Part shown: in pieces, positions 32,317 through 62,551 of the stretch
Layout of the letters: every line of letters begins with the position of its first letter
Numbering within the stretch: position 1 is the stretch's first letter
Origin: Staphylococcus phage vB_SepM_BE08
Reading direction: 5' to 3' (one strand)
Sequence record: MT596505.1
Length of the DNA stretch: 64,000 bases
Notes under the pieces: generated by a model
The model's input: the letters and a program-made list of their open reading frames with translations, nothing else
Told to the model about the DNA's origin: nothing
Database searches by the model: none
Program-made: the position numbers and the translations under genes

Positions 32317-33737
32317 TTGCTTTTTAAATTATCTATTTTACTTTGCAATATATCTATTTCTTTTTGGTAATCTCTTATTTCAAATTCATAAGCTTCATAT
32401 TCTATCTGATTTAATTTTTTTAATTTATTTATATACTCTCTTACAACTTTTTTATTTAATTTAGATTCTATAGATATTTCTTTTAAAGTTAAATTTTTTT
32501 CATATAATTTTTTAACTAATAAAATATTATCTGTATCATAGAAAGAGTTTTTGAAAACATTAAACCAATTAACATCAGTATTATATAAAGAAGAGTTTTT
32601 AATACTATTTTTAATGTATTCAAAGTCAGAAAGCTCAGCATTTATCTCTACATATTTAATACTATTATTAAGAACCGCGTCTTTTTTCTCTTTATCTACT
32701 CTTTGTTGTTCCTCTAAAGTTAGTTTAAATCTAGCACCTTCTCTTAACTCTTTATAATGTTGAGCACCATGAACTTCTATTACACAATCTAAATTTGGTA
32801 AATAGAAATCATACCTTCTTCTTTTTAAGAAATCAAAAGTCTTTTCTTGTATATAAGAAATACCTAACTCATCTAAGTAAGCTTTAACGACTTTTTCTGG
32901 ATAACTTCTTTTTATATTAAATTTACTTTTGTTTTCTTTATTTTTACTTTTTAATTCCGCACAATAACCACAATTTTTTTGTACTCCATTTAAAAAATGG
33001 TCTACTCTAACCTTCTTAACTGTACCGCAAGTTAAACACTTAACTTTAAACATATTTCTTGTATTTATAGTACCATCCTTATTTATAAACTCTTCATTAA
33101 AATAATCAACTATCTCATAGTTATTATTTACTTCACCTATTAAATTTTTATTAGCATCAGAGTTCTTGTTAGCTAAATAAGATATATTACAAGTAAAGAA
33201 ATTATACTCATTATATAACCTATTTTTATTATCATGTTCTAATCTTATATAACCAATTTCTTTACCCTTATTATTATATTTAGTAAAATAGTCTAAGATA
33301 GTGACGTAACCCTTATAGTTATTAAATTCAAAGTAAACATCACAACCAATACTATTTTTTAAATCTACTTTACCATTATTTTTTAGCGGTAAGCTTTCAT
33401 AATACATCTTTCTTTTAGCTGATTCTTTACTGTGTCCTAATTTATCACCTACTATACTTTTAAGTGATACATTTAAAAAACTTTCTTTATTTATAACATA
33501 ATATTTATTATCATACTTTAATTTTAAACGAGCTTTTTTATTATCTTTAGTACTAGGTAAATATTCTTCTATTACTATATAACCTTTAACACCTATATAC
33601 TCAAAAGGAACTTCTGTATTATTACATTTTTTAAAATCATATACTTCTTTTCCAGATGGTTGTATTTTAGTAGGTACATTATTTAAGTCTATGTAACAAG
33701 GTTTATTATTTTTATATACTTTAATTATTTTATCCAT
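32310..33737 (-). CDS. free-standing homing endonuclease-like protein with repeated N-terminal modules, a Zn-ribbon and a Vsr/DUF559-like nuclease domain
   Basis: CLTCGTVKKVRVDHFLNGVQKNCGYC, then YDFYLPNLDCVIEVHGAQHY. This C-terminus is homologous to that of the intron HEG at 7763..8725. Confidence 0.65.
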   Translation of the reverse strand: MDKIIKVYKNNKPCYIDLNNVPTKIQPSGKEVYDFKKCNNTEVPFEYIGVKGYIVIEEYLPSTKDNKKARLKLKYDNKYYVINKESFLNVSLKSIVGDKLGHSKESAKRKMYYESLPLKNNGKVDLKNSIGCDVYFEFNNYKGYVTILDYFTKYNNKGKEIGYIRLEHDNKNRLYNEYNFFTCNISYLANKNSDANKNLIGEVNNNYEIVDYFNEEFINKDGTINTRNMFKVKCLTCGTVKKVRVDHFLNGVQKNCGYCAELKSKNKENKSKFNIKRSYPEKVVKAYLDELGISYIQEKTFDFLKRRRYDFYLPNLDCVIEVHGAQHYKELREGARFKLTLEEQQRVDKEKKDAVLNNSIKYVEINAELSDFEYIKNSIKNSSLYNTDVNWFNVFKNSFYDTDNILLVKKLYEKNLTLKEISIESKLNKKVVREYINKLKKLNQIEYEAYEFEIRDYQKEIDILQSKIDNLKSKR

Positions 33738-54836: not shown

Positions 54837-55346
54837 TTAAATCCTTTCAATTGTATCAGTGTTTAAATTCAAATAATACTTTACCTTTTTATTTAATCCT
54901 CCTTTAGTAAAACCTTCAGATGTTCCTTGCCCTTGCATATAAAAATACTTAAACAGTTCATTATTGTATCGTAAGTATATATCCATACCGAAATATGTTT
55001 CAATATAAAATGGAGGATATTCCATCACATTATCATTGTAAAAGTTATTGATATACTTACAAATAGATTCTAACTTTTGATGCATAAACTCTTCACTTGA
55101 ATATAGATGTTTATACTTATCTTTATAGAGATACAGAATATCTTCTGTTGAGATACTTCCGAGTATCTCAATTGTCTCAGTAAACATTTTATTTAAATCA
55201 AAATCTTTGTTTTTGGCTTTCTTTAAAATTAAATTTCTTCTATTTTCTTTTTCTTTTAATCCATTATTAATGCTTTCTATTTGTTCATCAGTCATATTTG
55301 ATATATTTTTCAATATTTTATCAAATTTGTCATCTATATTACTCAT
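54837..55346 (-). CDS. hypothetical protein
   Basis: 169-aa ORF with RBS AAGGAGCGATAC. Confidence 0.5.
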   Translation of the reverse strand: MSNIDDKFDKILKNISNMTDEQIESINNGLKEKENRRNLILKKAKNKDFDLNKMFTETIEILGSISTEDILYLYKDKYKHLYSSEEFMHQKLESICKYINNFYNDNVMEYPPFYIETYFGMDIYLRYNNELFKYFYMQGQGTSEGFTKGGLNKKVKYYLNLNTDTIERI

Positions 55347-55378
55347 ATAGTATCGCTCCTTATAAAATGATTCTTTTA

Positions 55379-55573
55379 TTACCTCATATATTTATTCCTA
55401 TTTACTGTACTTGGTTTTGGTAGCTTATCAATGTCATATTGCTTTACATCTTCATGCATATATGTTTTTAATAATTTATCATTCTTTATAATGTATTTGC
55501 TATAATCTTTACTACTATTAAATTCTAAATGGCTTTTATCTTTTAAATTTTCTTTTTTCTTACCTTTTTCCAT
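55379..55573 (-). CDS. hypothetical basic protein
   Basis: 64-aa ORF with RBS AAAGGAGTTTT and a promoter at about 55628. Confidence 0.4.
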   Translation of the reverse strand: MEKGKKKENLKDKSHLEFNSSKDYSKYIIKNDKLLKTYMHEDVKQYDIDKLPKPSTVNRNKYMR

Positions 55574-55648
55574 ATTTAAAACTCCTTTACTTTATTGTAG
55601 TCTAAGTATATAACAAAAAACACCCAGTGTCAAGGGTGTTTTTATAAT

Positions 55649-56758
55649 TTATTCAATATATTCAATATTATCTTTAGTTTCTAATATACCTTTTGCTGTA
55701 TTATATACTAACTCAGGTTTATCTTCGACATCAAATGGAACAATGTTTTTACTTTTATCAAGTTCAAACTTTATTTTACTCATTAAGTCTTTAAAACCTA
55801 CAAAATAACCTTTTCTTTCATCTAGATTATTCTTTTGATACGTGTATGTTCTATCAAAAGGTTTAACAAAGAATCTATAAGTATTTCTGCCTTTAACATA
55901 GTTAAATGATATTGCGTGACTTTCATAATATCTAATACTTGTTTCTTGTAAGATATAACCATTAATAGGTATTTTTGTAATACTATCAAAAGCATCTTGG
56001 AAATCAGATAAATCATATAATAAGTCATTTGTATAAGATTTAATAGTTTCTAATACATTATTTTCAGTAACAAATACGTATTTTAAATCACGAGTAGTAA
56101 AACTAGGAATACATATAGCTTCTTTAACATCTCTAAAATTCCCTTTAGAAGATAATATTATTTCATTTATTTTTTGTTCTCTATCAGGAACTAATCCTAT
56201 AATTAAAGGTATATTATTATATTTCAATTCTACATTAATACTCTGACTTTCTATAATATATGGTTTAACTATTTCTTTAATTTTTTGAAAACTTTTGATT
56301 TTATTCTCTACAGAAGTTATATTATAGTTTATTTCTTTAAAAATAGAACTTAATGCTTTATGTGCTTTATAACCATCTAAAGTATAATCCAAATCATAAA
56401 TACTCATTAAAAAATAAGATAAAACTTTTTTGTTTAAGCTATTATAAATTTCTAGATTTAAACTAGGATTTTTATACGAACAATCTAGTTTTAGTAAAAA
56501 TTTAAAATTTTCATGTCCGTATTTACGTGTACGTTCAAGACTATACTTAGAGTAGTCACTAACTTCTACTAAATCAAAGTCCAAATCTTCTTTGATTTTA
56601 TTTACTAAACTTTTAGCAATATCATACTTGGAAAATAGGAACATATCATCTTTTTTCTTTATTGTTGGTTCTGGTTTAGACTCGAGAAATGCAAAAATTA
56701 CACTAAAAATAACTAAAAAAACTACGAAAACTATCATCATACCTAATACAATTTTCAT
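55649..56758 (-). CDS. membrane-anchored protein with an N-terminal TM helix (369 aa)
   Basis: RBS AAAGGAGTG. Hydrophobic N-terminus MKIVLGMMIVFVVFLVIFSVIFAF. Confidence 0.55.
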   Translation of the reverse strand: MKIVLGMMIVFVVFLVIFSVIFAFLESKPEPTIKKKDDMFLFSKYDIAKSLVNKIKEDLDFDLVEVSDYSKYSLERTRKYGHENFKFLLKLDCSYKNPSLNLEIYNSLNKKVLSYFLMSIYDLDYTLDGYKAHKALSSIFKEINYNITSVENKIKSFQKIKEIVKPYIIESQSINVELKYNNIPLIIGLVPDREQKINEIILSSKGNFRDVKEAICIPSFTTRDLKYVFVTENNVLETIKSYTNDLLYDLSDFQDAFDSITKIPINGYILQETSIRYYESHAISFNYVKGRNTYRFFVKPFDRTYTYQKNNLDERKGYFVGFKDLMSKIKFELDKSKNIVPFDVEDKPELVYNTAKGILETKDNIEYIE

Positions 56759-56811
56759 TATTTATACACTCCTTTGTAATTATTTTCATTAGTATCTTCT
56801 CCTTTTATTTT

Positions 56812-57321
56812 TTATGAAAATACATCTTTCATTTTGTTATAAGCATCTAATAGTTTATTATATTCTTGTTTAGAAATAGTTACTTTTTCTTGTATACTTG
56901 ATTTTTTAAAATGTTCTTCATAATCTCGTTTACAAGGTCTAACAATATAATCAATTTGTTTCTTTGGAAAGAGGTGTTTTTCTACGGGTTTATTTCCTTT
57001 ACCATCTCTATTTTGAGTAATAACAGCTACGTTATCAAAATTATGGTTGTAAACAATGATACCATTGAATCCAAATATAGATATTTTTTCTGATACAAAT
57101 ATATCCCCTTCTCTATAATCGTCAGTTTTTAATAATTCTTTGGACTTAATGATTTTCCAAGAATTAGGTAATTTCTCGTATTTCATTCTACTAGCATTTA
57201 ACTTAGTTGTATATTTATTTAAAGTTAATCGTTTTACATAATTAGATACTAGATTTGTGGATTGGTACCCATTAATATTGTTACTTTTTATAAATTTTCC
57301 TACGTAATCATTTAAATACAT
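56812..57321 (-). CDS. hypothetical protein
   Basis: 169-aa ORF with RBS AAAGGAGAAAAT. Confidence 0.5.
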   Translation of the reverse strand: MYLNDYVGKFIKSNNINGYQSTNLVSNYVKRLTLNKYTTKLNASRMKYEKLPNSWKIIKSKELLKTDDYREGDIFVSEKISIFGFNGIIVYNHNFDNVAVITQNRDGKGNKPVEKHLFPKKQIDYIVRPCKRDYEEHFKKSSIQEKVTISKQEYNKLLDAYNKMKDVFS

Positions 57322-57761
57322 GTTTTATTTTCTCCTTTATAAATTTTCTAAATGGTATTTGTAAGAACGTTTTACTTTGTTTAGCTCTTCTAATGCTTTA
57401 TTTAAACATACAGTATTGATAAGACCATTAGTGTCTAATTTTAAGTACTCTACATCAGTAATAATTCTTTCTAAAGAATTCACATACTCCTTTAATTGCT
57501 CTTCACTTTCCATTATATAACTCCTTTCTATATACCTAATGCTATTAAGATAAGGCTTACTAAGATAAGCACTACCATAATTAACATTATTAATAGAGGT
57601 ATGGCTTCTTCTTTATTTCCATCTTTAAATAGTTTAATTACTTCTACTAAAACACTAAAACAAATAGCTAAGTAAAATAAAGCTAATACACTTGCTAAAA
57701 TAATAAAACCTATAACTTTTACTCCTCCTTATTTATTATATATAAACTATAACATAAAAAA

Positions 57762-57800
57762 AGACCCCTGTCAATAGGGGTCAGTAAAAAATTTTAATAC
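57762..57800. terminator. bidirectional terminator hairpin (GACCCCTGTCAATAGGGGTC); it also embeds a TGTCAA early-promoter core
   Basis: Perfect 8-bp stem flanked by A and T runs. Confidence 0.5.
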
Positions 57801-57833
57801 TATTTTAGATTAACAATCGGTTCTTTATCTATA

Positions 57834-58646
57834 TTATTTATGTCTCATATCTAATATAGCATTTCCTGAATCTGGTAATGTGATAGGTGTATCACCTTTC
57901 CATTTTTCGATAAGTTGTTTTTGTAGTAACTCATCTGTTAATGATTCTTCTACAATTTCATTTGCTTTCTTAGTACCTTTTGCTTCAATTTCTTTACGTT
58001 CAGCTTCTTCTTTAGCAATTTGTTTGTCAACTTTCTTTCTCTCTAATTCTTGATTTGCTTTAACACGACTGTCAATTGCTTTTTGAGTATTTTTATCTGC
58101 TTTTGGAGAACTTAAAGCAATATCTTCAACAATAAAACCTTGACCTTTAAGATTTTCTTCAAGTTTATCTAAAGTAGATTTTTTAATTTCACTTGTTTTA
58201 ACACCGAAAGCATCAATTACTGAGTATTTAGAAACAGATTGACGTACGTTATCTTGTACTCTTGAACGTAAATAACCTTTTTCTAGCTGTTCAATATCTG
58301 CACTACCAAAACGATTAAATAATTCAACTGCTTTTGAGCTATCAACTTTATAGTTTACATCAATATCTAAATTAAGGTTTTTACCATCTGACGTTGATAC
58401 ATTCATATCTTTGTAGCTGATAGTTTGTGTTCTTGTAGGATATTCATTTACTCTGTTCATAGGTGCTACTAAGTGCCAGCCAGGACTTAGAGTATTATCC
58501 TTAACACCTTTAGGTGAGTATACAACACCTACTGTTCCTTGCGGTACTCTTTCAATACTTAGAAACGCAATTATAATTGCTACAATAATAATAATACCGC
58601 CTATAGTTAATCCTAAACCTGCTTTTACTTTACTTTCCATAATCAT
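57834..58646 (-). CDS. SPFH / band-7 (stomatin/prohibitin/HflKC-like) membrane protein
   Basis: N-terminal TM helix, then RVPQGTVGVVYSPKGV...LSPGWHLVAP, and a C-terminal coiled coil that is K- and E-rich. RBS AAGGAGA. Confidence 0.7.
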   Translation of the reverse strand: MIMESKVKAGLGLTIGGIIIIVAIIIAFLSIERVPQGTVGVVYSPKGVKDNTLSPGWHLVAPMNRVNEYPTRTQTISYKDMNVSTSDGKNLNLDIDVNYKVDSSKAVELFNRFGSADIEQLEKGYLRSRVQDNVRQSVSKYSVIDAFGVKTSEIKKSTLDKLEENLKGQGFIVEDIALSSPKADKNTQKAIDSRVKANQELERKKVDKQIAKEEAERKEIEAKGTKKANEIVEESLTDELLQKQLIEKWKGDTPITLPDSGNAILDMRHK

Positions 58647-58915
58647 TCTCCTTTTTTAATATCTTTATGAAGTTTTTTTAACTCTGATATTTCTTCTTCA
58701 AGTTCTTTAATTTGAGATACACTCGATGTTGATGATTCTAATGCTTCTTTTTCATGGTTTTTTAATTCAATCTCATAGTCAACCATTTTTAATCTCTTAT
58801 TAATTTCTCTTTTCTCTATTTCTTTCCTTACATACTCAAATAGCTTAGTTGCTCCAATAATTATACCTAGTATGATTACTACAAAAATTAAAGCAACTAA
58901 TAGTAACCAAGCCAT
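58643..58915 (-). CDS. small membrane protein with a coiled coil (possible NfeD-like partner of the SPFH protein)
   Basis: 90-aa ORF with an N-terminal TM helix and a 4-nt overlap with the SPFH gene. Confidence 0.45.
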   Translation of the reverse strand: MAWLLLVALIFVVIILGIIIGATKLFEYVRKEIEKREINKRLKMVDYEIELKNHEKEALESSTSSVSQIKELEEEISELKKLHKDIKKGE

Positions 58916-58985
58916 ATATACCTAACCTACTTTCTTCTCTTTAACTATTCTTGTTTAAGTTTATCTTTTTGTTCAGGTGTTAACA

Positions 58986-61322
58986 TTAACTATCTCTCCA
59001 AACTTGATTTATTTCATTATGAGTTCTTCCTGTTTCATTTTTTGCAAATTCTTCTTGCATTTTTCTTAAAGTGATAATATCTGTATTCTTAAGTTCTTTT
59101 CTAGTTAAATTAGAATAATCACGAACCCAGTAATAAAAAGCTCTTAAACTTTCGTTTTCTTGTAAAATTCTTTGAATAGGTCGTCTATCATTACCTTTAG
59201 CTAAGCTTTCTACGATACCTCTCATGTATTTCCAGTCATTATAGTACTTAGATTTATACTTAAACATAAAACCATTTGAATCTTCAAATACATATCCTTC
59301 ATGTTTAATATCTAAAGAATTATGATTATTCTTATACCAATCATAAAACTCTACCCAAGTATCGAACATAAGAGACCATGATTTAAAAGGTACTCCGATA
59401 GATAAAGCAAATGTATAAGTATTGGAATAACTTTCTTTTTTGAATTCTAAAGTATTATGAATAATATCTAATAAAACGATATGACTTTTATCATATTCAA
59501 TGATATGTGGGTCGTTTTCAATATCAATAACTTCAAACACTAAAGTTCTATCATGTTCTTTAAGATACTTAACGATTGTTTCTACTTGAATATCATCAAA
59601 CTGCTTATCAAATAAATCTTTAAACCATAGAGCATAATCATTATTATGCTTACTTAAATGTGTTTTTGATTTACTACAAAAGACTAAATCATCAATGTTA
59701 GAATCAAAGTAAACTAAACCTAAATAACCATTCTCTTTTTTATAACCATATAACGGAAATTTAATAATATCAGGTAATGCATCTAATTTTGTCTCAGGTC
59801 TTTCATTAATATTGAAAAATTTATTATAACCTCTACCTAAAATTTTATTTACTAGAGTATCAATAAATAATCCTCTAGCACTTACTGTTAATTGGTTCCA
59901 TCTTTTTTTATCAAATGCTTTTTTAGTAAAGTTAACAGATACTACATAATTGTACTGTTCAATGACTTTGATAGATTTTTTCTCTTCTTTAGCTAAACTT
60001 AAATATTTATCTACTGTTAAATCTTTATCAATTGATTTTAAATAGTCTTCATTAACTAAGAACTTATGATTAAATTTTTCATTTTTAATTAATACGGGGT
60101 CAATAGAGTTGTCACTATTAATCGTTACTGCTCTTAAGTAACCACCTTTTTCAACTCTACCTTCTAAGTTGATAGAATTTTTTGTTAAATCTAAACGTTC
60201 ACGATATAAATTTCTATGACCGTGAATCTGAATAACTGAACTATCTTTCCATTTACTGTCTACATCAAATTCATAACTACCTACACCATTAATAAGTTGA
60301 TGTGTTGATACTTTATTTAAATTATCTAACATATTAGGTAAGATACCACCATGATTAATAACATAGTACTGTCCTCTATAATTAAAGTATAGAACTTGTT
60401 GTAAGTTTCTTAAAATAGCACGTACTCGTTTAGGTGTAATACCATTATCAAGGAAAGATTTTAACGTGTACACAAAACCTCTAGCTTTAAATACATCTAA
60501 GGCTAATTTAAATAGTTTAGTTTTATCATCACTAACTTCATGGAGCTCTTTATACGTATCTGTATCTAAGTGAGCATACCTACGTAAATGTCTTTCATGA
60601 TTACCTTCTAATAATTCTACATTGTCTAAGTTATGGATAAGTTCTAAATAATCAAAAGTTTCTTTAGGTTCTAAACCTCTATCAAAGTAATCTCCTACAA
60701 AAATGAATAATTCGTTAGGGTGGTCTACAATGTAGTTATAACTAGCAAATTCATTTAAAGCTGTGAAACAAGAATGTACATCACCGATAACATGAATTTT
60801 ATCATAATGATTTACTTCCATAAAATCTTTATCCCACTCAAGAGAATCTAATACTTCTTCAGGTTTTAATTCTTTTGCAACGCTAGGAATATGCTCATGT
60901 TGTAGTCTTTCATAAATATTCTCAATAACTTCTACAGGAACTTGTTTTAATTTTTCCCTTTGGTTATTACGTTCAATTAATGTGTCTAAGTCTTCTTCTA
61001 AGGTTACTACATAAACACGATAACCATATACTTTAGCTAACTTCTCATATCGTTTAATTAATTTACCTGTAGAGTGTGTAGCATCAATTACAGTAAATTC
61101 ACCATTACTCATACGATTCTCTAAAATTTCAAATAATGTTTTCCAAACTAGATTATCTTTATCTTGAGTAATCGCTATTCTACCTTCTTCATTATAGATA
61201 GGTGAACCGAATTGTAATCTTAAAGTGTCTGGACTTAATGTGTAATTTTCTAGTCCTTTCTCTTTAATAAAAGTAGATTTACCTACACCTGGTACACCTC
61301 TCATTAATAATAATTGTTTCAT
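58986..61322 (-). CDS. trifunctional polynucleotide 5'-kinase / 2',3'-phosphoesterase / RNA ligase (Pnkp-like RNA end-healing and sealing enzyme)
   Basis: N-terminal P-loop kinase (GVPGVGKST, then DTLR). Central calcineurin-like metallophosphoesterase (GDVHS, GDYFDRG, GNHE). C-terminal nucleotidyltransferase-like motifs (KENGYLG as motif I KxNG, EGYVFE, FKYKSKYY as motif V KxK). RBS AAGGAGAGG. Confidence 0.7.
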   Translation of the reverse strand: MKQLLLMRGVPGVGKSTFIKEKGLENYTLSPDTLRLQFGSPIYNEEGRIAITQDKDNLVWKTLFEILENRMSNGEFTVIDATHSTGKLIKRYEKLAKVYGYRVYVVTLEEDLDTLIERNNQREKLKQVPVEVIENIYERLQHEHIPSVAKELKPEEVLDSLEWDKDFMEVNHYDKIHVIGDVHSCFTALNEFASYNYIVDHPNELFIFVGDYFDRGLEPKETFDYLELIHNLDNVELLEGNHERHLRRYAHLDTDTYKELHEVSDDKTKLFKLALDVFKARGFVYTLKSFLDNGITPKRVRAILRNLQQVLYFNYRGQYYVINHGGILPNMLDNLNKVSTHQLINGVGSYEFDVDSKWKDSSVIQIHGHRNLYRERLDLTKNSINLEGRVEKGGYLRAVTINSDNSIDPVLIKNEKFNHKFLVNEDYLKSIDKDLTVDKYLSLAKEEKKSIKVIEQYNYVVSVNFTKKAFDKKRWNQLTVSARGLFIDTLVNKILGRGYNKFFNINERPETKLDALPDIIKFPLYGYKKENGYLGLVYFDSNIDDLVFCSKSKTHLSKHNNDYALWFKDLFDKQFDDIQVETIVKYLKEHDRTLVFEVIDIENDPHIIEYDKSHIVLLDIIHNTLEFKKESYSNTYTFALSIGVPFKSWSLMFDTWVEFYDWYKNNHNSLDIKHEGYVFEDSNGFMFKYKSKYYNDWKYMRGIVESLAKGNDRRPIQRILQENESLRAFYYWVRDYSNLTRKELKNTDIITLRKMQEEFAKNETGRTHNEINQVWRDS

Positions 61323-61339
61323 AATTACCTCTCCTTTTA

Positions 61340-61603
61340 TTATTTAATACTAATAAATTCTATACTGTTTAAAGGTACCCAAACATCGTCTTCTGTTGAA
61401 TTACTTGCAAAAAATAGTGAAAATGTATCAGCGTCACAGTTTTTTAACAACTTAATAAGACTATCTCTCTCTTCAATTGAAACATTAATATCCATATATT
61501 TCCCACTTTTTAGAGCTACTGTGACTTTATATTGTTTTTCTTCTTTAAAATTTTCCATATTATTCATTGAAATATCTCCTTTATTTTTTGATATATACAT
61601 CAT
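61340..61603 (-). CDS. hypothetical protein
   Basis: 87-aa ORF with RBS AAAGGAGATATT. Confidence 0.45.
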   Translation of the reverse strand: MMYISKNKGDISMNNMENFKEEKQYKVTVALKSGKYMDINVSIEERDSLIKLLKNCDADTFSLFFASNSTEDDVWVPLNSIEFISIK

Positions 61604-61928
61604 ATTTAGTGTCTAATTCTCTATTACCTGTTATGAAATAAATTTTACTTTTCTTTGATACTGTATATGTTGTTTTCTTTATATAACTTTTATTACTCTC
61701 ATGTGCTTTTACGTCAACAGAAGATACTGATGCTATTTCATTGAATTGTTCTGCTGAAATTACTGATACATTTTTATCTTTTAAAGCTACTTCTTTAGGT
61801 AAAATAATAGTTACTCCTATTAGTAAAATACCTATAAATCCTAAAAATTCAAAACTTTTTTTTCTCTTTTTTATCCCTACGTACCATGATACTACTGTTA
61901 GAATTAAAATAATAAAATAAAAAATCAT
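61581..61928 (-). CDS. membrane protein with two TM helices
   Basis: 115-aa ORF with RBS AAAGGAGGTATATT. Confidence 0.5.
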   Translation of the reverse strand: MIFYFIILILTVVSWYVGIKKRKKSFEFLGFIGILLIGVTIILPKEVALKDKNVSVISAEQFNEIASVSSVDVKAHESNKSYIKKTTYTVSKKSKIYFITGNRELDTKYDVYIKK

Positions 61929-61981
61929 AATATACCTCCTTTAACTTAACTATAAACTATAATAACTTTTTTGTCAAGTAC

Positions 61982-62551
61982 TTATTTAAACTCAATTAAA
62001 TCTTTATGTACATCTTCAGGTTCTAAATAATACTTTTTAGCGGTTTTAGTTATGCCTATTAGTTTATCATTTGTGTTATCCTTATCTACAATCAAACTAT
62101 TAATTTGCTCTTGTATAATATTTTTCGTATTAGGGTTCTTTGTTTTAATTTTACTTATTTCTTTTTCATAAATTTTAATTTGAATATCATTACGTTTTTT
62201 GATTAAAGGTCTAACTTCTTTATTTAACTTACGTTTAATAAAATCACTAATATCATCTCTAGTATCCTTTATAGATTCCCAATCAGCTTCATTATCACTC
62301 ATAATAGTAATAATATTTAAGTGTTTATCAATAACAAGTTTATGCTCTTTAAATACATAAACTTCTCGACCCTTTTCTTGTTGTGTAACATAAGTAGCTT
62401 TATTTAAAGCTTGAGCTACCCACTCTTTTGCTTTCTCTCTTGATGAGTTTTCTACACGCATTAAAAATCTTTCATATGCATGGTTTGTTATATTTACGTG
62501 TTTACTTAAAATAGGTTTTTTTCTTTCCACTATATTTAGCATGTTTAACAT
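61982..62551 (-). CDS. hypothetical protein
   Basis: 189-aa ORF with RBS AGGAGATG and an early promoter at about 62596. Confidence 0.5.
   Translation of the reverse strand: MLNMLNIVERKKPILSKHVNITNHAYERFLMRVENSSREKAKEWVAQALNKATYVTQQEKGREVYVFKEHKLVIDKHLNIITIMSDNEADWESIKDTRDDISDFIKRKLNKEVRPLIKKRNDIQIKIYEKEISKIKTKNPNTKNIIQEQINSLIVDKDNTNDKLIGITKTAKKYYLEPEDVHKDLIEFK

Follow-up and report, generated by a model that had tools for sequence, protein, structure and literature searches.

A predicted prohibitin-type SPFH protein and its small transmembrane partner, encoded as a coupled gene pair by Staphylococcus phage vB_SepM_BE08

In a 64,000-nt stretch of the genome of Staphylococcus phage vB_SepM_BE08 (sequence record MT596505.1; this whole stretch is referred to here as the window), two adjacent genes at positions 57,834 to 58,915 encode a small membrane protein and, directly downstream of it, a protein of the SPFH family. 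We favor the view that this pair is the Sepunavirus orthologue of Kayvirus mbpV-mbpS, that is, a coupled two-gene unit with its own terminator, and that it probably serves as a phage-supplied scaffold for membrane compartmentalization and quality control. The gene pair as such is already known: it is annotated in databases, and its Kayvirus counterparts were named mbpV and mbpS by Glowacka-Rutkowska et al. in 2020, who also noted the PF01145 domain (PMC7150955). Nor does the sequence offer anything that sets the BE08 copy apart from hundreds of other copies. What an earlier reading of the bare DNA letters had noticed here (the original prediction) is confirmed as an observation, and its interpretation is borne out in part.

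By nucleotide identity, vB_SepM_BE08 can be assigned to Sepunavirus: over positions 57600 to 59100, it shares 99.7% identity with Staphylococcus phage vB_SepM_BE05 and 97.9% with phiIBB-SEP1 (SEP1), the type Sepunavirus. The whole stretch is present in 15 records of S. epidermidis myoviruses, so that S. epidermidis rather than S. aureus, which had been assumed at the outset, is the host to consider. Both open reading frames (ORFs) lie on the minus strand, a 90-amino-acid (aa) ORF at 58643-58915 and a 270-aa ORF at 57834-58646, and, as originally predicted, the pair follows directly on an RNA-repair gene, a 778-aa kinase-phosphatase-ligase located 70 nt away. Since 15 near-identical records keep both ORFs and the frame, length, and architecture of the small one are conserved, the ORF pair is not a product of chance. 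A single SPFH ORF is present at the locus. The labels in circulation for it differ: the records of phages Twillingate, Quidividi, and Terranova call it "HflC membrane protease regulator," RefSeq has "lipoprotein," and "prohibitin family protein" is used in the related siphovirus CF9 as well as in the SEP1 RNA-seq paper. The small ORF is labeled "membrane protein" in annotated records.

The two genes are tightly coupled. In its longest form, the SPFH ORF runs from an alternative ATG at 58646 to a stop codon at 57834-57836, and it is for this form that the predicted 4-nt ATGA overlap with the partner gene holds. A Shine-Dalgarno sequence, AGGAG, lies within the last codons of the partner gene (K-G-E), spaced 1 nt from the first ATG and 7 nt from a second one (58638-58640). 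GenBank annotators start the coding sequence at this second ATG (807 nt), where the alignments of homologues also begin. The real geometry is probably partner stop TGA, 2 nt, SPFH ATG, which replaces the overlap by a short gap and still leaves the genes closely joined. With its Shine-Dalgarno sequence inside the 3′ end of the partner gene, the SPFH gene is translationally coupled to it.

The larger protein matches Pfam Band_7 (PF01145) over residues 33 to 215 with E=2.4e-33 and 116.1 bits, compared to a cutoff of 23.6, which answers in the affirmative the profile search that had been suggested as a check; it also matches phrog_200 with E=1e-84. In an AlphaFold2 (AF2) model of the monomer (predicted local distance difference test score [pLDDT], 81), a transmembrane (TM) helix is followed by an alpha/beta SPFH domain, a 51-residue helix (residues 183 to 233), a short helix, and a C-terminal tail of low confidence. 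Searching the PDB with Foldseek returned the human prohibitin complex at the top (8rrh_A, E=1e-16), followed by erlin1/2 (2e-15), HflK/C (7e-15; 7vhq), stomatin, and QmcA (6e-10; 8z5g), each with a probability of 1.00; all of these are cage-forming SPFH proteins. In the model, the long helix appears to correspond to the coiled-coil wall segment of such cages. Together, Pfam, AF2, and Foldseek bear out the prediction that the phage encodes an SPFH protein in which a TM helix stands at the N-terminus and a coiled coil follows.

As for its subfamily, prohibitins are the best relatives of the SPFH protein in both sequence and structure, although identity to them is only about 20%. A phmmer search of PDB sequences found PHB1 at 8e-8, and a profile built from 24 family members reached PHB2 (2.4e-15), PHB1 (2.7e-14), and the erlins (1e-7), while none of HflK/C, stomatin, or flotillin was found at E<=1e-3. 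The hflC equivalog model (TIGR01932) scored 26.9 bits, far below its cutoff of 134.4, and the locus contains no second SPFH gene, which speaks against membership in HflC or HflK. Because the profile reaches prohibitins and erlins only and the hflC score is so low, we assign the protein on sequence grounds to the prohibitin type, corresponding to SPFH4 of Hinderhofer et al.; the HflK/C-type arrangement that had been proposed is not upheld. The NCBI name for its relatives is likewise "prohibitin family protein." A 2009 survey (PMC2636767) predicts for SPFH4 proteins, the prokaryotic prohibitins, a periplasmic orientation and a joint action with FtsH similar to that of HflK/C and PHB; it reports that they lack an NfeD partner and that they were experimentally unstudied at that time. 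PADLOC models gave zero matches for the SPFH protein, so that the suggested link to defense islands finds no support there.

How the SPFH protein sits in the membrane is less clear-cut. Its N-terminal flank is rich in K/R, with a net charge of +1.7 over ~8 residues compared to +0.4 over the next 15. Outward-facing topology is common to prohibitin, erlin, and HflK/C. The "lipoprotein" label can be dismissed for BE08, in which the residue in front of the IERVPQG motif (...IAFLS-IERVPQG) is Ser and not Cys, so that there is no lipobox. The motif could be located in 122 unique relatives, of which 75 have Cys at this position, and a canonical lipobox, [LVI][ASTVI][GAS]C, occurs in only 6 of 143 unique relatives. 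In those associated with S. pseudintermedius (loci L015, L017, and L076-L078), a lipobox (LTAC or LAAC) is located exactly where the TM helix ends, which argues that these relatives are exported. Some members of the family may be true lipoproteins, which matters for how the entire clade is oriented in the membrane.

The partner protein has one hydrophobic segment, an N-terminal helix, after which only charged helices follow. Its AF2 model (pLDDT 84) consists of helices at residues 2 to 61 and 66 to 89 and contains no beta structure. End to end, the protein matches phrog_22697, "membrane protein" (E=2e-42); Pfam and NCBIfam gave no family, including no match to NfeD (PF01957) at E<=0.1, PADLOC gave only a marginal match to the CARF_TM model (E=5e-4), and a search of the PDB with the family profile found no solved relative. 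Family members carry on average 0.5 K/R before the TM helix and 4.3 K/R in the 20 residues after it, which predicts an N-out/C-in orientation.

NfeD proteins are defined by a C-terminal OB-fold and usually have several TM helices. The partner, which had been likened to them, has one TM helix, an all-helical model with no OB-fold, and no PF01957 match, and therefore we reject this identity. What it shares with NfeD is its location in an operon with an SPFH gene, a positional analogy. In line with this, NfeD has been reported to pair with the SPFH1/2/5 subfamilies and not with the prohibitin type (PMC2636767).

Using the 90-aa partner as the query, tblastn retrieved 15 Sepunavirus records only, as if the protein were private to this genus. 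This view was overturned by syntenic ORFs and by a profile search. In Sextaecvirus siphoviruses, a 91-aa counterpart (36% identity, E=8e-21) precedes the SPFH gene by 2 nt; in phage K, the counterpart is gp196 (MbpV; 102 aa as opposed to 90 aa in BE08, 26% identity, E=1e-5), which overlaps gp197 by 1 nt, the SPFH cores of phage K and BE08 being 76% identical. Frame, length, and architecture of the partner are kept down to 24 to 37% identity across genera. More generally, a comparable stop/Shine-Dalgarno/start geometry recurs at 27 of 43 unique SPFH loci on viral contigs, where a small ORF with an N-terminal TM helix ends between -23 and +12 nt from the SPFH start. In staphylococcal phages, these ORFs comprise 90 to 106 aa and include a long charged helix; in Bacillus phages, they are 44 to 52 aa long.

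The profile of the long-form partner retrieves Staphylococcaceae-associated sequences only, including UniRef entries named "MbpV" (E about 1e-33), and these extend to chromosomal genes of several Macrococcus species. In Macrococcoides bohemicum (CP079981; locus L079, 5730-6849), the pair lies between yqeG and yqeH-aroE-nadD-rsfS; in Jeotgalicoccus (locus L083, 2666-3819), between thiN/DUF554 and asp23-fakA; and in Phocicoccus (locus L082, 2667-3795), near yflT and an ABC transporter. The chromosomal cassette is thus seen in three Staphylococcus-related genera, each time at a different housekeeping site. S. pseudintermedius carries the pair within a phage-like element, and among the phages it follows an RNA ligase gene in Sepunavirus and lysK in Kayvirus and lies near the DNA polymerase gene in Sextaecvirus. 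That the two genes remain adjacent through at least seven unrelated contexts argues that they form a functional unit, and the distribution suggests that the cassette is mobile and has passed between phages and cells. The small upstream gene, taken for a partner in the original prediction, is indeed a conserved one: it is inherited with the SPFH gene across genera and, in phage K, transcribed with it.

Selection has acted very differently on the parts of the pair. Compared to Sextaecvirus S-CoN_Ph3 (locus L004, 3229-4301), the SPFH core (aa 29 to 245) is 98.2% identical at a synonymous divergence (dS) of 0.40, and its ratio of nonsynonymous to synonymous substitution rates (dN/dS) of 0.03 indicates very strong purifying selection. 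In the same comparison, identity falls to 40% for the TM segment, 43% for the C-terminal tail, and 36% for the partner, with dS values of 0.9 or more (about 1.06 for the partner). The dN/dS of the partner, about 0.5, corresponds to weaker, relaxed purifying rather than positive selection and argues that the small ORF is translated. A myovirus and a siphovirus of one host thus have nearly identical SPFH cores next to diverged TM segments, C-terminal tails, and partners. This pattern gives no support to the idea that the pair as a whole passed recently between Sepunavirus and Sextaecvirus, with the core alone at 98% identity and everything around it at 36 to 43%. The contrast between core and periphery may stem from mosaic recombination whose junctions fall at the domain borders, or else from evolutionary rates that differ greatly, bearing in mind that the segments are short.

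The presence of an SPFH gene in a phage, regarded as unusual in the original prediction, is nothing of the kind: relatives were found by tblastn at 704 places in 703 of 50,697 phage records (about 1.4%), from phages of Staphylococcus, Bacillus, Enterococcus, Pseudomonas, Salmonella, Erwinia, and other hosts. SPFH genes in T4-like phages had been noted in 2006. Several distant phage homologues, for example among those in crAss-like phage cr85_1, Erwinia phage S6, Escherichia phage OLB145, and a Klebsiella prophage, are annotated as "serine protease" or "putative transposase." These names are probably mislabels; alternatively, they could reflect fusions to, or neighborhood of, NfeD/ClpP-type proteases.

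Published expression data for SEP1 and phage K place the pair in the middle phase of infection. In SEP1 (Table S1, PMC11265418), gp100, which encodes the partner, reached 1120, 14708, and 877 reads per kilobase per million (RPKM) at 5, 15, and 30 min, respectively, and gp101, the SPFH gene, 693, 24899, and 1473 RPKM. The upstream RNA ligase gene, gp099, gave 7804, 11546, and 681 RPKM. That is, gp100 and gp101 rise 13- to 36-fold from 5 to 15 min while the ligase gene rises 1.5-fold, and the genes on either side (gp097-098 and gp102-104) peak at 5 min, making the pair of SEP1 a middle-class island within an early-transcribed region. At 15 min, gp101 is among the highest middle-gene transcripts of SEP1, an abundance that fits a stoichiometric scaffold. 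In phage K, gp196 and gp197 constitute transcription unit TU29, which starts from a separate middle promoter, TTGACAAAATTAATACATAGTGTATAGT, and is closed by a terminator, CCACCTATTGACATAGGTGG (PMC9241854). Going by these two relatives, the proposed expression from the early region has to be corrected to middle expression.

In BE08, an intrinsic terminator, also annotated in SEP1 and Twillingate, lies 52 nt past the SPFH stop codon. Its loop contains the -35 box (TTGACA) of a strong promoter-like site for the next early gene block, at which a promoter is annotated in SEP1 and which marks the 3′ boundary of the unit. Phage K (NC_005880.2) has an equivalent overlap after gp197, with the terminator at 32909 and the promoter at 32893, in what seems to be a regulatory arrangement conserved within Twortvirinae.

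Taken together, the pair resembles Kayvirus MbpV/MbpS (phage K gp196/gp197) in that a small protein with a TM segment and a charged helix is coupled upstream of an SPFH protein (~264 aa in Kayvirus), in the terminator with the next -35 box in its loop, and, going by the SEP1 data, in middle-class expression. It differs in location, following the RNA-ligase gene instead of the lysis cassette, and in having Ser where phage K has Cys in front of the corresponding IEKVPQG motif. With PHB1/PHB2 and SPFH4, the SPFH protein shares its size (~270 aa) and the order of N-terminal TM helix, SPFH domain, long helix, and short C-terminal segment. Unlike the PHB1/PHB2 heteropair, there is one gene here, and a coupled small bitopic partner has not been described for prohibitins. 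Going by the model, the cage fold and a probable type-II topology would be shared with E. coli HflK/HflC-FtsH, which is set apart by its hflK/hflC gene pair. Similarly, SPFH-NfeD operons (QmcA-YbbJ, FloA/FloT with NfeD, and PH1511/PH1510) also coexpress a small membrane protein with an SPFH scaffold; the partner in BE08 differs from theirs in having one TM helix, helices only, and neither an OB-fold nor a ClpP domain.

As to how the pair might work, the kinship with prohibitin, erlin, and HflK/C suggests that the SPFH protein would assemble into a homo-oligomeric ring or cage and so enclose part of the host cytoplasmic membrane, probably sitting on its outer face (N-in/C-out). The partner, a clade-specific bitopic protein of the opposite orientation (N-out/C-in), would have its TM helix in or beside the ring and a helical hairpin of about 65 aa projecting into the cytoplasm. 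Such a complex may sequester or shield a membrane client in the replicative phase and in this way keep the membrane working until late lysis. By analogy, the client with the best precedent is the host AAA protease FtsH, given that HflK/C, QmcA, and PHB act with FtsH-type or m-AAA proteases (PMC2636767); as a candidate, FtsH is nevertheless a doubtful one. A wider proposal is tentative, although we would give it a little more room. MbpV-type proteins may be an unrecognized, non-NfeD class of partner for SPFH4 scaffolds, confined to Bacillales and their phages, so that the two proteins would act as a single trans-membrane machine in which TM helices link a prohibitin-like cage outside the cytoplasm to a coiled-coil handle inside it. 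By importing it, large staphylococcal phages could govern a host membrane client, FtsH for instance, in mid-infection, and the cassette would have been exchanged repeatedly with the chromosomes of Macrococcus, Jeotgalicoccus, and Phocicoccus.

A number of points weigh against a scaffold of this kind. Among the 43 viral loci, those of Enterococcus and Streptococcus phages have, with one exception, no small partner, and the same holds for distant bacterial prohibitin-family genes, which means that a partner is not universally needed. The topology call is weak, with the N side being the more positive one in only 28 of 42 homologues and BE08 itself having no lipobox. With the SPFH domain outside and the partner helices inside, contact would be possible through the TM helices only. 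Cages of PHB, HflK/C, and erlin are hetero-oligomeric, while there is one SPFH gene here. The expression data come from SEP1 (97.9% identical here) and phage K and not from BE08, and a promoter scan of the 70-nt spacer upstream of the pair (58916-58985) found no sigma-70-like site; the only candidate upstream, a weak one (59103..59074), lies within the ligase gene. In P. aeruginosa, deletion of all nine SPFH genes produced almost no phenotype (PMC13086221), so that an effect on infection may be subtle. Finally, the literature on the role of this clade amounts to a discussion-level hypothesis (PMC7150955): our search for functional work on phage SPFH proteins found only mentions in genome annotations and the 2020 Kayvirus discussion.

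That hypothesis points to lysis. In Kayvirus, the pair sits between the holin-endolysin cassette and tgl, and the authors who named it noted that MbpV "resembles holins" (one TM segment and a charged C-terminus) and proposed that MbpS may facilitate Tgl secretion (PMC7150955). The BE08 partner is also weakly similar to phrog_25820, filed under lysis (E=0.003). Accordingly, the pair could be a lysis-control module in which a holin-, antiholin-, or pinholin-like partner is joined by an SPFH protein that organizes holin rafts or aids the Sec-dependent export of Tgl, thereby tuning lysis timing. We consider this unlikely. While the TM segment and charged tail of a holin are present, a lysis-gene neighborhood and late expression are not: the pair lies away from lysis genes in phages of Sepunavirus, Sextaecvirus, Bacillus, and Enterococcus and in housekeeping contexts on the chromosomes of Macrococcus, Jeotgalicoccus, and Phocicoccus, and it peaks at 15 min in SEP1, compared to 30 min for the holin gene gp074. 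Even in phage K, the holin and endolysin genes are transcribed late, as part of TU31, as opposed to the middle unit TU29 of the pair (PMC9241854). Nor is a predicted N-out/C-in protein with a long cytoplasmic coiled coil a standard class of holin. A moron-type function in exclusion or counter-defense, in which the complex would block entry of superinfecting genomes or shield the membrane from depolarizing abortive-infection effectors, strikes us as improbable, too. It would suit an autonomous cassette with its own terminator (and, in phage K, its own promoter) that is spread patchily over unrelated phages, temperate streptococcal and enterobacterial prophages among them, and whose partner falls into the PHROG category "moron, auxiliary metabolic gene and host takeover." The fast evolution of partner, TM segment, and C-terminal tail around a conserved core is, moreover, a pattern common at conflict interfaces. 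Against this stand the relaxed purifying rather than positive selection on the partner, the PADLOC searches, empty for the SPFH protein and marginal for the partner, and chromosomal copies that lie among housekeeping genes and not in defense islands; the literature searched reports no such phenotype.

The version put forward in the original prediction, an HflK/C- or YqiK-style SPFH protein that is expressed early with an NfeD-like partner and acts on host FtsH or flotillin microdomains during takeover, now seems very unlikely. SPFH membership itself is certain, the partner does occupy the operon position that NfeD has in bacterial SPFH1/2 operons, and a link to FtsH is precedented for HflK/C, QmcA, and prohibitins (PMC2636767). 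The subfamily searches described above, however, end far below the hflC cutoff and do not reach HflK/C, stomatin, or flotillin, the partner departs from NfeD in every structural respect, and expression in SEP1 and phage K is middle, not early. We give even less credence to a joint function with the adjacent kinase-phosphatase-ligase in tRNA repair, for which the 70-nt distance between the genes could be taken as a hint. Bacterial Band-7 genes do occur beside RtcB together with a "band-7-associated tRNA" (Burroughs and Aravind 2016, as cited in bioRxiv 10.1101/312249), and P. aeruginosa PaFlo8 lies within an rtc locus (PMC13086221). Of the loci compared, only those of Sepunavirus have a ligase homologue adjoining the SPFH gene, and this lack of conserved linkage largely refutes the idea. 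A tRNA-like RNA was not found either, with ARAGORN detecting no tRNA in the whole window and Rfam giving no match in 55000-62000. In addition, the ligase gene of SEP1 is already high at 5 min, when the pair is not. We therefore return to a scaffold for membrane compartmentalization and quality control, of the MbpV/MbpS kind, as the reading that we favor. The features of the BE08 locus are compiled in Table 1.

Table 1. Features of the gene pair and its borders in the vB_SepM_BE08 window
Feature	Position	Strand	Basis
Partner gene, MbpV-family orthologue of SEP1 gp100 (90 aa)	58643..58915	-	ORF list, PHROG, homologues
Partner TM helix, about aa 2-24	58844-58912	-	Hydrophobic N-terminal helix
Partner charged helices, aa 25-89, predicted cytoplasmic	58649-58843	-	AF2, charge counts
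Prohibitin-type SPFH gene (by sequence), MbpS-family orthologue of SEP1 gp101 (268 aa)	57834..58640	-	Pfam, phrog_200, Foldseek
Shine-Dalgarno AGGAG of SPFH gene	58648..58652	-	Read from sequence; ribosome-binding site annotated there in phage Twillingate
N-terminal TM anchor, aa 2-27	58560..58637	-	AF2 helix, hydrophobic sequence
SPFH alpha/beta domain, aa 29-176	58113..58556	-	Pfam match 33-215, AF2 strands and helices
Long K/E-rich helix, aa 183-233	57942..58094	-	AF2; aligned with PHB1/PHB2 helical region
Intrinsic terminator ending the pair, stem-loop GACCCCTATTGACAGGGGTC (57782-57763) plus T-run	57753..57782	-	Terminator scan
Promoter-like site of next early gene block, TTGACA-17-TGnTATAGT	57746..57774	-	Promoter scan, 11/12, extended -10
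Spacer between RNA-ligase gene and partner gene, 70 nt; 5′ boundary of pair	58916..58985	-	Sequence
RNA-repair gene upstream of pair, 778 aa	58986-61322	-	AAA_33 kinase, metallophosphatase, RNA_lig_T4_1 domains

The neighboring genes deserve a brief comment. In the 778-aa protein, a P-loop polynucleotide-kinase-like domain, a calcineurin-like phosphoesterase domain, and a T4 Rnl1-type ligase domain are fused, so that, judged by its domains, a single chain appears to hold everything needed for heal-and-seal RNA repair; GenBank names for the gene differ, being either "RNA ligase" or "polynucleotide kinase." On the other side, the first gene past the SPFH terminator (57528-57716, minus strand) is a homologue of SEP1 gp102/Twillingate_179, a 62-aa membrane protein with two TM segments. 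Here it has GTT in place of the GTG start of SEP1 and Twillingate, leaving no canonical start codon, and it is absent from the ORF list; this may be either a loss of the start codon or a sequencing error. Further along, a 169-aa ORF (56812-57321, minus strand) matches phrog_4855 and corresponds to SEP1 gp104, "endolysin" in RefSeq. Pfam returned nothing significant for it, the one weak match (E=0.084) being below the gathering cutoff, and gp104 is an early gene in SEP1 (9886 RPKM at 5 min); the endolysin label looks doubtful.

Although SPFH genes are found in about 1.4% of phage genomes, none of the phage-encoded proteins has been functionally characterized in the literature searched, and they are present in Kayvirus and Sepunavirus phages that are used for therapy. 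Being compact, abundantly expressed, and matched by chromosomal counterparts, the pair described here offers a tractable model for how SPFH proteins choose their clients. It would also be a model for what a virus gains from installing a membrane scaffold of its own.

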